Positions 40,725 through 43,266 of a stretch of 64,000 bases of DNA are shown here, piece after piece. Both the position numbers and the translations under genes were made by a program. The notes beneath the pieces were generated by a model that had not been told where the DNA came from, ran no database searches, and worked only from the letters and a program-made list of their open reading frames with translations. Location: assembly GCA_019113245.1 (NCBI GenBank), contig DXHU01000013.1, positions 6,965 to 70,964 of the forward strand. Reading direction: 5' to 3'. Source of the DNA: Candidatus Ornithospirochaeta avicola. GTDB lineage: Bacteria; Spirochaetota; Spirochaetia; Sphaerochaetales; Sphaerochaetaceae. Numbering within the stretch: position 1 is the first letter of the stretch; each line of letters opens with the position of its first letter.

Positions 40725-42137
40725 ATGGCAGGAAACAAGAGCTTGGGCGATGCTAAAGCTGCAAAGAATGATGAGTTCTATACGCGATATGAAGACATCG
40801 AGGCGGAAATGAACGCCTATTACGAATACGACAACAACGTATTCAGGGGAAAGACTGTATTGCTTCCCTGTGATGACCCTGAATGGTCGGAATTCACACG
40901 ATATTTCGCCTCCAACTTCGATAGGTTCGGGCTGAAGAAGCTGATATCCACATCTTATGCGAAGAGTGCAGGATCAAGACAGCTCACTCTTTTCGAGGAG
41001 GAATCCCCACTGTTTGATGAGGATAAACATGATACTCATGGTAAACTTTTTGTCATCGAGAGAAAAGAGGGGGATACAAAGCCTATAGATACGGATAACA
41101 TCGAGTTCAGGGGATATCTTGACGGTGATGGTGATTTCCGTTCAAGAGAAGTGACAAAGCTTAGGGGTGAAGCCGATATCATTATAACGAATCCTCCGTT
41201 TTCACTACTACGAGAATTCTTCGCTTGGATAATGAGAGGAGAGAAGAGGTTCGTCATTCTGGGGAGTATGAATGCGATAACCTACAAAGAGATTTTTCCT
41301 TATCTCAAAGACAATCTGGTTTGGCTTGGGTACAAGTCATTGAACAGCGATATGTATTTCAATGTCACAGAGGAATATCAGCATTGGCTTGTCGAGAACA
41401 AAAAGGAAGGCTCGGCTTATAAGGTGATAAACGGTATCGTAATGGGACGATTGGCTTCCGCTTGCTGGTTTACCAACATCGATCATGGCAAACGTCACGA
41501 GCTCCTTTCCCTCGACACAATGGCTCACAATCTCAAGTTCAATAAGAAGTTGAGGAAGAAATTTCTCGATGAATATGGGAAGCTGGAATACCCTCACTAT
41601 GACAACTATGATGCCATCGAGGTGCCATTTGTTGAGGCAATTCCTTCCGATTACATCCCGACAGGGGACTTGACAAACGACGAGTTTGACATAGAATCCT
41701 TGACAGACAGACAGACAGACAGACAGACAGACAGACAGACAGACAGCTTGAAGTCTGCAATGGCATCATGGGAGTGCCGATCACCTTCCTCGACAAGTAC
41801 AATCCGGAACAGTTCGAAATTCTCGGAATCGCCAATTCTGCACGTTGGATCGGATGGAAATGCCTCACCGTCATCAATGGGCAGAGAATCTACAACAGAC
41901 TGCTTATCCGCAGAAAATCGCAGGTGTAACGGGCTTATGGGAGTACCGATTACCTTCCTCGACAGATATAATCCAGTACAATTCAAGATTATTGGTCTTG
42001 ATCGATATGTAGTAGATAATCCTAAACCTGGTCATCGTTTCACAATATCTGGGCGTGAAACATATGCCCGAATATTGATTCAAAAGAGGAGCAAAGAAAA
42101 TGAAAACAGAACTATATACGGAATGGACGGTAGGTGA
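40725..42137 (+). CDS. EcoRI-like N6-adenine DNA methyltransferase with internal (GACA)11 tract and duplicated C-terminal module
   Basis: 'NDEFYTRYEDIE' N-terminus and 'IIITNPPFSL' catalytic NPPF motif. In the observed frame, residues after the repeat read out of frame through module 1, then in frame through module 2 ('GLMGVPITFLDRYNPVQF'). Confidence 0.8.
   Translation: MAGNKSLGDAKAAKNDEFYTRYEDIEAEMNAYYEYDNNVFRGKTVLLPCDDPEWSEFTRYFASNFDRFGLKKLISTSYAKSAGSRQLTLFEEESPLFDEDKHDTHGKLFVIERKEGDTKPIDTDNIEFRGYLDGDGDFRSREVTKLRGEADIIITNPPFSLLREFFAWIMRGEKRFVILGSMNAITYKEIFPYLKDNLVWLGYKSLNSDMYFNVTEEYQHWLVENKKEGSAYKVINGIVMGRLASACWFTNIDHGKRHELLSLDTMAHNLKFNKKLRKKFLDEYGKLEYPHYDNYDAIEVPFVEAIPSDYIPTGDLTNDEFDIESLTDRQTDRQTDRQTDSLKSAMASWECRSPSSTSTIRNSSKFSESPILHVGSDGNASPSSMGRESTTDCLSAENRRCNGLMGVPITFLDRYNPVQFKIIGLDRYVVDNPKPGHRFTISGRETYARILIQKRSKENENRTIYGMDGR
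41702..41746 (+). repeat. Tetranucleotide simple-sequence repeat (GACA)11+G
   Basis: Counted directly: G at 41702, 41706 ... 41746. Translated as (TDRQ)3TD in the observed frame. Confidence 0.97.
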
Positions 42138-43266
42138 TGTATCGAAAGGCTTCGTATTCGACAGAAATGAAAACAAGGGGCTTTTTGGCCTCAGCGGGAA
42201 GCTCATCATCCAGCCTGAATATCAGCGCAATTACATATACGACGACGGAGGTCGCGACGTGAAGGTCGTGGAGTCCCTTCTGAAGGGATATCCGATTGGG
42301 CTCCTGTATTTCGTCAGGAACGCAGACGGGATGTATGAAGTGCTTGATGGCCAACAGAGGATTACATCGTTCGCACGGTTCGTGAATCAGTCGTGGCCGT
42401 TTGCCGTCGAACGCAGCGGGAAGCCGCGTTACTTCAACAGCCTCGATGATGACGACAAGAACCGTCTCATAAACACACAGCTCACCATTTACGTATGCGA
42501 AGGCACGCCGTCTGAGATACAGTCATGGTTTGAGACAATCAACATAGCAGGTGTTCCGCTCAATAAACAGGAACTCAGAAATTCAGCATATCACGGCCCG
42601 TTTGTCACTGCTGCGAGGAAGGTCTTCTCAAATCCTGAGAATGCCAATATGAACCGCTGGAAGACCTATGTAAGCGGAGATCCCAAAAGGCAGCAGATTC
42701 TTGAGACGGCATTGGACTGGGTAAGCGATGGCAATATAGAAAGCTACATGGCAAAGCATCGTGACAATGGTGACATCAAGGAACTGGTGAACCATTTTGA
42801 AACCGTTATCGATTGGATTGATGGAATATTCGAATATACAGGCAAAGAGATGTGTGGGCAGGAGTGGGGTAAGCTCTATGGGGAATACCACAATAATCCA
42901 TATGCTAAGGATGATGTATCCTCCCAGTTTGATAAGCTTTTGGACGACCCGTTTGTCACGAACAAACGCGGAATCCCTGAATATATTCTGGGTGGAAGCA
43001 CAGAGAAGCAGCTTCTTAATATACGGGTTTTCGATGAAGCCATCAAAAGAAAGGTGTATAAGAAGCAGACTGCGGAAGCCGAAGCAGAAGGTGTTTCAAA
43101 CTGCCCGCTCTGCGCAGTTGGTGATGGTCCGAATTCCAAAAGAATCTATAAGCTCAGTGAGATGGATGCCGATCATGTGACGGCTTGGAGCAGAGGGGGA
43201 GCGACAAACGAGGATAACTGCCAGATGCTCTGCAAGACCCATAACAGATCAAAAGGGAACAGATAG
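42100..43266 (+). CDS. DUF262 (ParB-like NTPase) - HNH nuclease, GmrSD-like architecture
   Basis: 'IQPEYQRNYIY' and 'DGQQRITSF' DUF262 motifs. C-terminal 'CPLC...DADHVTAWSRGGATNEDNCQMLCKTHNRSKGN' HNH. RBS AAGAGGAG. Overlaps the methyltransferase ORF end by 38 nt. Confidence 0.85.
   Translation: MKTELYTEWTVGDVSKGFVFDRNENKGLFGLSGKLIIQPEYQRNYIYDDGGRDVKVVESLLKGYPIGLLYFVRNADGMYEVLDGQQRITSFARFVNQSWPFAVERSGKPRYFNSLDDDDKNRLINTQLTIYVCEGTPSEIQSWFETINIAGVPLNKQELRNSAYHGPFVTAARKVFSNPENANMNRWKTYVSGDPKRQQILETALDWVSDGNIESYMAKHRDNGDIKELVNHFETVIDWIDGIFEYTGKEMCGQEWGKLYGEYHNNPYAKDDVSSQFDKLLDDPFVTNKRGIPEYILGGSTEKQLLNIRVFDEAIKRKVYKKQTAEAEAEGVSNCPLCAVGDGPNSKRIYKLSEMDADHVTAWSRGGATNEDNCQMLCKTHNRSKGNR

Follow-up and report, generated by a model that had tools for sequence, protein, structure and literature searches.

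A frame-switching EcoRI-family methylase paired with a conserved DUF262-HNH nuclease in a spirochete: a restriction-modification module whose nuclease is proposed to depend on the methylase

Phase-variable DNA methylases act as global epigenetic switches, and surveys of these enzymes have centred on restriction-modification (R-M) systems of Types I and III. In Type III systems Res needs Mod, and because of this dependence mod genes can phase-vary; in both types, switching the methylase off is safe because restriction needs the methylase. Type I systems can also switch the specificity of HsdS by repeats or recombination, as in NgoAV and the SpnD39III-type shufflons. In BrxU, GmrSD and SspE, DUF262 domains serve as switches or sensors that depend on NTP. 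Here we describe a locus with likenesses to each of these systems. It lies in a 64,000-nt stretch of contig DXHU01000013.1 (positions 6,965 to 70,964; assembly GCA_019113245.1) of Candidatus Ornithospirochaeta avicola, hereafter called the window, where an EcoRI-family methylase gene with an internal (GACA)n repeat runs into a gene for a DUF262-HNH nuclease.

Comparison with related loci shows that the nuclease open reading frame (ORF) at 42100-43266 encodes the restriction partner in a mobile and very widespread module of two genes. We propose that the action of this nuclease is conditional on a working methylase, whose C-terminal tails would serve as swappable recognition elements, and we give this reading a probability of about 0.5. 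Models already exist for the family to which the nuclease belongs. The novelty lies in the frame-selected switching of methylase tails, which is recurrent across phyla, and in its implication for the control of the nuclease. In full-text literature searches, neither this pair of methylase and nuclease nor EcoRI-family methylases switched by repeats came up as already described. According to a preprint on the classification of methylases, M.SsoI, which is identical to M.EcoRI, is the only one of the unclassified EcoRI_methylase-type sequences in the REBASE gold-standard set whose activity has been shown by experiment (10.1101/2023.12.13.571470).

Methylase switch and nuclease in the window

The two genes and the elements within them are as follows.

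40725-42137, + strand: methylase ORF (Pfam EcoRI_methylase, E 3.5e-104)
40725..41701, + strand: catalytic core of the methylase, up to the repeat tract; N6-adenine type, with the motifs DEFYT, LLPCDDP and NPPF
41670-41697: promoter-like site TTGACA-16-TAGAAT, sigma-70-like with 11/12 matches, immediately 5' of (GACA)n
41702..41745, + strand: (GACA)11 repeat, encoding TDRQ repeats (Tandem Repeats Finder 11.2 copies, 100% match; exact count 11)
41768..41929, + strand: tail module 1 (MGVPITFLDKYNPEQFEILG...YNRLLIRRKSQV), sharing the core's frame when the repeats number 9, 12 or 15 and not otherwise
41930..42137, + strand: tail module 2 (CNGLMGVPITFLDRYNPVQFKIIGLDRYVVDNPKPGHRFTISGRETYARILIQKR...), in frame at the observed 11 repeats
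42086..42092, + strand: Shine-Dalgarno-like AGAGGAG, 7 nt 5' of the nuclease ATG, read from the sequence
42100..43266, + strand: nuclease with DUF262 and zinc-ribbon HNH domains, 388 amino acids (aa), ATG start (Pfam, PADLOC)

At first sight the pair has the properties of a Type II system. Methylase and nuclease are separate, adjacent genes in a mobile two-gene cassette that is also found on plasmids, phages and islands, and both proteins match Type II models over their full length. The methylase matches the PADLOC model MTase_II (PDLC03297, E 1.8e-78) and is a genuine homolog of M.EcoRI, whose motifs and tail architecture it shares. The authentic M.EcoRI was recovered beside R.EcoRI on an E. 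coli plasmid and aligned with the window methylase. No second copy of the EcoRI-family methylase or of the nuclease occurs within the window. The AlphaFold2 model of the methylase (mean predicted local distance difference test score, pLDDT, of 61) is good in the core and poor in the variable regions and the linker, with values of ~65–76 for residues 404-460 and <50 for linker residues 289-401. A fold search with this model returned generic Rossmann methyltransferases at E above 0.06.

The likeness to classical Type II systems does not extend to the stability of the methylase gene. We rebuilt the gene in silico with other repeat numbers, which revealed three states. With 11 repeats (also 8 or 14), tail 1 is out of frame and supplies a linker of 65 aa, without stops, that leads into tail 2, yielding a protein of 470 aa with its stop at 42137. 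With 12 repeats (also 9), tail 1 is in frame and the protein of 402 aa ends at 41927-41929, leaving a gap of 170 nt to the nuclease. With 10 or 13 repeats, translation stops at 41751 after 340 or 344 aa, and the product is without the conserved C-terminal module. The truncated methylase is presumably inactive. Hence, the switch has three states: tail 1, tail 2 and OFF. A preliminary description of this DNA had given the coordinates of both genes, their 38-nt overlap and the outcomes for 11 and 12 repeats, all of which were confirmed by the sequence and the simulation; it missed that the states are three, two tails plus OFF, and likewise the recurrence of such switching across the family and the natural OFF alleles described below.

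The last 38 nt of tail 2 overlap the nuclease ORF, with the methylase stop at 42135-42137. As a candidate conserved feature this overlap was rejected: it measures 11 nt in the related loci L001-L004 and L100, and is 38 nt rather than 11 nt in the window because the TGA of L001 is mutated there. The 20 nt before the nuclease ATG, AGAGGAG included, are identical in L001-L004. The RNA fold predicted for 42030-42150 shows no significant structure (z = -1.2), and AGAGGAG is not sequestered.

The nuclease combines an N-terminal GmrSD_N/DUF262 domain (residues 34-164, E 5e-21) with a C-terminal HNH domain of family PF01844 (residues 353-388, E 2.4e-7). It had been described as GmrSD-like, which holds for the DUF262 domain and not for the architecture, that of GmrSD being DUF262 with DUF1524: in the Pfam search, DUF1524 (GmrSD_C) gave no match at E up to 0.01. 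The best PADLOC match, at E 9.7e-79, was to REase_II (PDLC03418) and pairs residues 20-387 with positions 17-371 of the 372 in this model, whereas matches to the DUF262 defence proteins NsnA, PD-T4-2_A and HEC-05 were far weaker. No characterised REBASE enzyme was identified behind PDLC03418. More than 8000 homologs occur in the protein collection, nearly all of those listed being 388 aa long, and their sources name them 'DUF262 domain-containing protein', 'HNH endonuclease' or 'McrA'. In a comparison of homologs from Bacillota, Pseudomonadota, a Bacteroidota phage and the spirochete of the window, four phyla in all, DGQQR, the zinc site Cys335/338/374/378 and the catalytic residues D358-H359...N373...H381-N382 were invariant.

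A search of the PDB with the nuclease sequence gave no match at E up to 1. The AlphaFold2 model has a mean pLDDT of 64, with 85–93 in the HNH part, and the fold search returned weak matches (best E 0.013), led by BrxU (7p9k) and followed by ParB/Noc, SspE and sulfiredoxin, SspE (6jiv) being at rank 9. These matches fit a ParB/Srx-like NTPase fold, which supports membership of the fold family only. With GmrSD, BrxU and SspE the nuclease shares an N-terminal DUF262 domain with DGQQR and a C-terminal His-Me finger nuclease. Unlike these proteins, it ends in a PF01844 HNH domain with a zinc ribbon instead of DUF1524; it is ~200 residues shorter than BrxU, and sequence-level matches are lacking. 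It also differs from R.EcoRI, which is a PD-(D/E)XK enzyme, while the window nuclease has a ParB-like NTPase domain and an HNH domain.

Pairing, tail exchange and recurrent switching across genomes

A scan of the species-representative genomes of GTDB yielded at least 530 confirmed nuclease loci in many phyla. Pairing was counted in the 66 listed loci with at least 1.3 kb of upstream sequence. In 64 of these species-level loci the methylase core lies upstream on the same strand; of the remaining two, one has the methylase core directly downstream and the other has methylase tails at the start of its contig. The pair was found on plasmids, phages, integrative elements and chromosomes, in at least six phyla. 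The last methylase stop overlaps the nuclease start or lies within 20 nt of it in 74 of 90 loci, a 4-nt overlap being the commonest arrangement. Co-occurrence of the two genes in other genomes had been named as a check in the preliminary description, and by these counts the pairing of methylase and nuclease is effectively obligate. Unlike GmrSD and BrxU, the nuclease family is not solitary, being paired with an N6-methyladenine methylase. In the neighbourhoods listed, all with the methylase as the immediate upstream neighbour, the gene calls included neither ssp nor dnd genes. SspE is a precedent for a DUF262 nuclease that depends on the host's own modification; unlike SspE, the family is not linked to ssp or dnd genes, and the logic alone may be shared.

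One fragment has a different layout. In L002 (1-560), a nuclease identical to P0001 and tail 2 stand directly behind an unrelated HTH (helix-turn-helix) gene of 107 aa, and there is no methylase core. The shared string 'aaggtgtaatggtgtcatggg' marks the junction, and the fragment is either a real orphan nuclease or a chimeric metagenome scaffold of 2 kb.

The nuclease is far more conserved across phyla than is usual for Type II enzymes. Across 59 species-level loci it is nearly gapless, with lengths of 375–405 aa and a mean pairwise identity of 68.5%, against 350–426 aa and 58.5% for the methylase, in which the segments ~201-240, ~261-280 and the tail are hypervariable and rich in indels. The ratio of nonsynonymous to synonymous substitution rates (dN/dS) of the nuclease is 0.04 in comparison with L001 and L108, which points to strong purifying selection within the phase-variable lineage. 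The nuclease is intact in these relatives, and pseudogenisation there, a refuting condition in the preliminary description, was not found.

This conservation is combined with exchange of tails. The nucleases of L001 and L100 are 98% identical and their methylase cores 99% identical, while their tail-2 types differ. Conversely, the methylase cores of the window and L101 are 99% identical while their nucleases are only 56% identical; L101 (5001-8389) has a single tail, no repeat tract and an ORF6N gene inserted before the nuclease. The latter comparison implies that methylase core, tails and nuclease are exchanged independently. In these sequences one nuclease serves different tails and does not track them. 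In this respect the module resembles Type I systems with switching HsdS, in which one restriction subunit works with several stochastically chosen specificity elements and cassette-like modules are shuffled between loci. Unlike in those systems, where a separate S subunit undergoes inversion or truncation, the alternatives here are tandem C-terminal tails of the methylase itself, picked by the reading frame that follows a repeat tract.

The products of all three states occur in nature, as tail-1 proteins (P0121, P0244, P0245), tail-2 proteins (P0122, P0242) and OFF proteins (P0243, P0246). The 90%-identity cluster of P0121 contains tail-1 products of 390, 393, 398 and 401 aa, a tail-2 product of 491 aa and two truncated products of 332 aa ending in ...TDRQTA*. 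Within the lineage of the window we counted four tail-1, three tail-2 and two OFF assemblies. In L108, the truncated methylase of 332 aa is followed by both tail ORFs and then by an intact nuclease of 388 aa. L110 represents the same chromosomal site in another sample (99% nucleotide identity), with the methylase in the tail-2 state, and the two nucleases show no difference over 388 residues. L109, from an independent study, is a second OFF allele. OFF is the assembly consensus in two samples, and OFF alleles with an intact nuclease exist in nature. No difference in repeat number separates L108 from L110. What sets them apart, just 5' of (GACA)4, is a 14-nt indel ('gacacagaattctt') that lies between 'cttgaca' direct repeats, a second slippage-type route to a frame change.

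A classical Type II system would not tolerate loss of the methylase beside an intact nuclease, and this is the combination found in L108, with L109 as a second OFF allele, although these are metagenome assemblies and a second methylase is possible. The phase-variable methylase, its alternative tails and its OFF alleles beside an intact nuclease all set the module apart from classical Type II systems. They bring it closer to the Type III phasevarions, which likewise have a repeat tract in the methylase ORF, a variable recognition region in the methylase, a conserved nuclease and a tolerated OFF state. As in phasevarions, a tract within the ORF sets the frame, its length varies between strains and both ON and OFF alleles occur naturally. 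The likeness is functional only and does not extend to sequence: in Type III systems a beta-class methylase, Mod, goes with Res, which combines a superfamily 2 helicase with a PD-(D/E)XK nuclease, whereas here an EcoRI-like methylase with NPPF after the S-adenosylmethionine-binding motif stands beside a nuclease that has DUF262 and HNH domains only. In addition, the frame selects between alternative tails in our case and not just between ON and OFF, and dependence of the nuclease on the methylase is a proposal here.

The switch was not confined to the window. The close relatives L001 and L100 have the transposase, two HTH genes, methylase, tails and nuclease in the same arrangement, as does L101, in which an ORF6N gene additionally separates methylase and nuclease. 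Another chromosomal site, without the transposase and the first HTH gene, is occupied in L108 and L110. The close relatives have 4, 6 or 7 copies of GACA, and several of their contigs break inside the tract; over all loci seen, the copy numbers were 4, 6, 7, 11 and 18 (the last in L067). Tail 1 of L001 differs from that of the window, yet its +1 frame is still free of stops and joins tail 2 in frame. Such an open +1 frame is seen in four different tail-1 sequence types, including that of a Kiritimatiellaeota genome with (AGAC)18. Codon permutation gave probabilities of 0.15, 0.10, 0.22 and 0.19 for a stop-free +1 frame in these four types, and the pattern indicates that the read-through frame of tail 1 is selected.

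Repeats and tails of other designs were found among the 120 closest methylase clusters, where 22 (~18%) had peptide repeats that stem from repeat tracts (TDRQ, RE, DQIRS, TEQNR), two tail motifs or both. This share resembles that in Type I and Type III methylases, of which almost 20% carry repeat tracts (PMC10123105). Alternative tails, where present in the 22 clusters, number two or three, and the clusters comprise several independent designs, with (GACA)n, (GA)n or pentanucleotide units. In L043 and L044, (GA)n lies inside the tail and the three downstream frames all end in the canonical Y-x-R-I-x-I strand; all three frame products exist as predicted proteins elsewhere (P0149, P0138, P0226), and this design is a three-way switch without an OFF state. 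A leader-coupled repeat design is found in a phage- and island-borne version of the module (L010-L015). Here (GA)n lies in a short leader ORF (MTSQVERERE...), ~50–75 nt 5' of the methylase ATG (4766-4783 in L010), with 9, 9, at least 14, at least 11, 11 and 12 copies, and in the 9-copy allele the leader stop abuts the methylase ATG. In L070 (Spirabiliibacterium falconis), (AACGC)13 at 3778-3842 stands between a promoter-like TTGACA/TATGCT and the methylase start; since all three frames stop before the methylase ATG, this tract is part of the leader or 5' untranslated region and not of an ORF. Tail types recur in distant methylases, and one type is that of the authentic M.EcoRI; the tail-2 type of the window is also present in P0124 and L070. 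Repeat and tail switching recurs throughout the whole methylase-nuclease family.

These features also have practical consequences, because repeat tracts break assemblies at methylase-nuclease loci, and automated annotation splits the methylase into fragments that are open to misreading as pseudogenes.

Control of the nuclease: proposed mechanism and alternatives

The preliminary description had pointed to a puzzle of restriction logic, in that a methylase that switches OFF lies beside a nuclease. Our results indicate that this puzzle is real and general across the family. It could be resolved if the nuclease brings no fixed sequence specificity itself and acts only together with a functional methylase. 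Slippage of (GACA)n puts the methylase core in one of three frames, yielding tail 1, tail 2 or a truncated product. We favour a route in which the methylase, at unmethylated targets, recruits or activates the nuclease, as Type III Res depends on Mod. Alternatively, the nuclease may sense the methyl mark, as SspE senses phosphorothioate; this possibility of sensing self-methylation, raised in the preliminary description, is still viable. The C-terminal tails would be exchangeable recognition elements, and slippage would change or abolish modification and restriction together, without self-killing, thereby providing a phase-variable defence and epigenetic switch. Both the role of the tails in setting specificity and the dependence of the nuclease on the methylase are inferred. 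A conditional nuclease would account for the common switches, the use of one nuclease for several tails, the tolerated OFF state and the tight linkage of the two genes.

Several observations weigh against a conditional nuclease. Our literature search found no characterised member of the nuclease family, and the nuclease has no recognisable methylase-interaction or translocase domain. PADLOC files the nuclease as Type II, and dependence on the methylase fails if the seeds of this model include a characterised, methylase-independent, site-specific enzyme. The AlphaFold2 model of the methylase is poor outside the core, and its fold search matched generic methyltransferases only. The OFF alleles come from short-read metagenome assemblies; a protecting methylase could be present elsewhere in these genomes, or their nuclease could be silenced. 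Finally, the high conservation of the nuclease could reflect a single specificity spread by horizontal transfer.

Some of these points would fit a classical Type II system whose cost is tolerated. One fixed site would be protected by every tail variant, OFF variants would die or be rescued by another methylase, and the tracts would be hitch-hiking or mildly deleterious. The full-length matches to REase_II and MTase_II agree with this explanation, as do the presence of the module on small plasmids, like addictive Type II systems, a nuclease as highly conserved as isoschizomers are, and the partnership of the authentic M.EcoRI, of the same methylase family, with a classical enzyme. We nevertheless judge it distinctly improbable, because OFF is the consensus in two samples, in one of them with a nuclease identical to that of an ON strain. 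Moreover, the suicide load of long tracts (11 copies here, 18 in L067) would be heavy: any ON state of the (GACA)n design can change by a single step in two ways, and one of these leads to OFF. Independently arisen repeat and tail designs that recur in ~18% of the close methylase clusters, and a conserved stop-free read-through frame, are likewise difficult to reconcile with tolerated damage, and the three-tail designs without an OFF state point to selection for switching among functional variants.

Frame-coupled expression, also among the arrangements suggested in the preliminary description, would retain a classical nuclease blocked by methylation. This nuclease would be made only when ribosomes reach the stop of tail 2, by translational coupling or Rho polarity, so that the tail-1 state would provide modification only, the tail-2 state full restriction-modification and the OFF state neither. 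Such coupling would suit the overlapping or abutting stop and start that are the norm of the family (74/90 loci), and where a locus has several tails, just the final one adjoins the nuclease. Ahead of the nuclease, 170 nt of RNA go untranslated in the tail-1 state and ~350 nt in the OFF state, and polarity is possible there. However, the nuclease has a strong AGAGGAG site of its own, and the lack of significant RNA structure around it means that obligatory coupling via a sequestered ribosome-binding site is not supported. The promoter-like site at 41670-41697 could also transcribe the nuclease independently. Furthermore, one step from 11 to 10 repeats takes tail 2 to OFF, upon which pre-made nuclease would meet DNA that is losing its methylation, and the existence of alternative tails would remain unexplained. 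Overall, frame-coupled expression is still viable as the main rival, and we consider it unlikely.

Yet another possibility is a Type IV enzyme, that is, a modification-dependent nuclease like GmrSD or BrxU directed against foreign modified DNA, with the methylase as an unrelated epigenetic switch. The N-terminal DUF262 domain, the weak fold matches led by BrxU with SspE lower, and the name 'McrA' given to a homolog by one source speak for it. This first arrangement of the preliminary description could not be upheld and seems to us very improbable. The nuclease is locked to one methylase family, often with overlapping codons, and PADLOC describes the two as a Type II pair, with its DUF262 defence-protein matches far weaker than REase_II; the presence of the pair in practically all loci examined excludes a Type IV enzyme that stands alone. 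The nuclease also lacks DUF1524 and any sequence match in the PDB at E up to 1, and its 388 aa compare with chains of 557–580 aa for BrxU and 560–771 aa for SspE.

A nuclease conditional on the methylase would have consequences for classification. Tentatively, the pair may be an unrecognised R-M class, built of 'Type II' parts with Type III-like working, in which a generic ParB-like NTPase-HNH nuclease is targeted by an EcoRI-family methylase whose tail, chosen among two or three tandem alternatives by repeat frameshift, is the recognition element. We regard such a class as somewhat doubtful at present; if it is real, it would offer a new way to phase-vary the specificity of restriction and methylation together, common in gut and rumen bacteria. 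In any case, a pair annotated as Type II shows this kind of switching at a large scale, with thousands of metagenomic homologs in many phyla. Should the nuclease indeed need the methylase, a 'Type II' family of great abundance has been misfiled, ParB-like NTPase-HNH nucleases have a new role, and gut commensals gain a compact and unnoticed way to vary their epigenome and phage barrier.

Flanking genes and signals

In the window the module is chromosomal and lies behind an insertion sequence (IS) element and two HTH regulators. The flanking features are as follows.

38361..39821, - strand: IS-type DDE transposase, 486 aa (Pfam DDE_Tnp_1, E 4e-29), adjoining the 5' side of the cassette
39941..40627, + strand: HTH gene 1, Xre/C-protein-like (Pfam HTH_3, E 3.8e-5; HTH at residues ~16-75)
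40266..40724, + strand: HTH gene 2, 152 aa, putative controller (Pfam HTH_26, E 1e-12, and HTH_3, E 1e-10)
43268..43444, + strand: hydrophobic ORF of 58 aa, inside a 285-nt insertion at 43269-43553
43562..43599, + strand: putative operon terminator, hairpin CCCACC...GGTGGG followed by a T-rich run, read by eye

The transposase marks the locus as mobile and has no part in the mechanism. An upstream DDE_Tnp_1 transposase gene was also called in L001, L100 and L101, and across this gene L001 and the window share 91% of their nucleotides.

Two HTH controllers had been placed in the operon. Both are indeed present upstream; they are confined to one lineage, and the first is without the stop codon of its relatives. 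HTH gene 1 encodes 228 aa in the window, whereas in L001 and L100 its versions are 82 aa long, show 91% identity and end in ...PENI*. The stop was lost through a difference of 1 nt ('aatattaac' in the window, 'aatatttaac' in L001), which reflects either a genuine mutation or an error in sequencing a run of Ts. The extended gene overlaps HTH gene 2 out of frame. HTH gene 2, whose stop abuts the methylase ATG, is 97–98% identical in L001, L100, L101 and L109. Its PADLOC match to Control_protein is weak (E 1.4e-3), and the likeness of the two HTH genes to controller proteins is weak in general.

The 58-aa ORF, which had been taken as the end of a five-gene operon, was rejected as a component of the system, being part of a strain-specific insertion. 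It has no match in Pfam, PADLOC or NCBIfam, and elsewhere it occurs only in L111, of the same strain, none of the remaining related loci examined having it. The insertion is missing from L001-L004 and L100, where the nuclease stop is directly joined to sequence matching 43554-43635 of the window. The terminator segment is 93–95% identical in these five loci, where it directly follows the nuclease stop.

A consensus scan for promoters and terminators over 39700-43700 gave counts that were not above the shuffled expectation. It did not report the hairpin at 43562-43599, whose loop exceeds 8 nt. The promoter-like site at 41670-41697 sits 3' of most of the methylase gene, in a segment that is deleted in L001. 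The tails and the nuclease could be transcribed from it independently of the methylase; instead, it may be a by-product of the 'cttgaca' direct repeats.

Elsewhere in the window, Rfam matched a group II intron (D1-D4-3) at 26770-26922 on the - strand (66 bits, E 5e-11). The window also carries gyrA, gyrB (its product is 100% identical to GyrB of Candidatus Ornithospirochaeta avicola), yidC and, nearby, a gene for a BspA-type leucine-rich-repeat protein (12338-16847, - strand; 21866-23665, + strand; 25292-26707, + strand).

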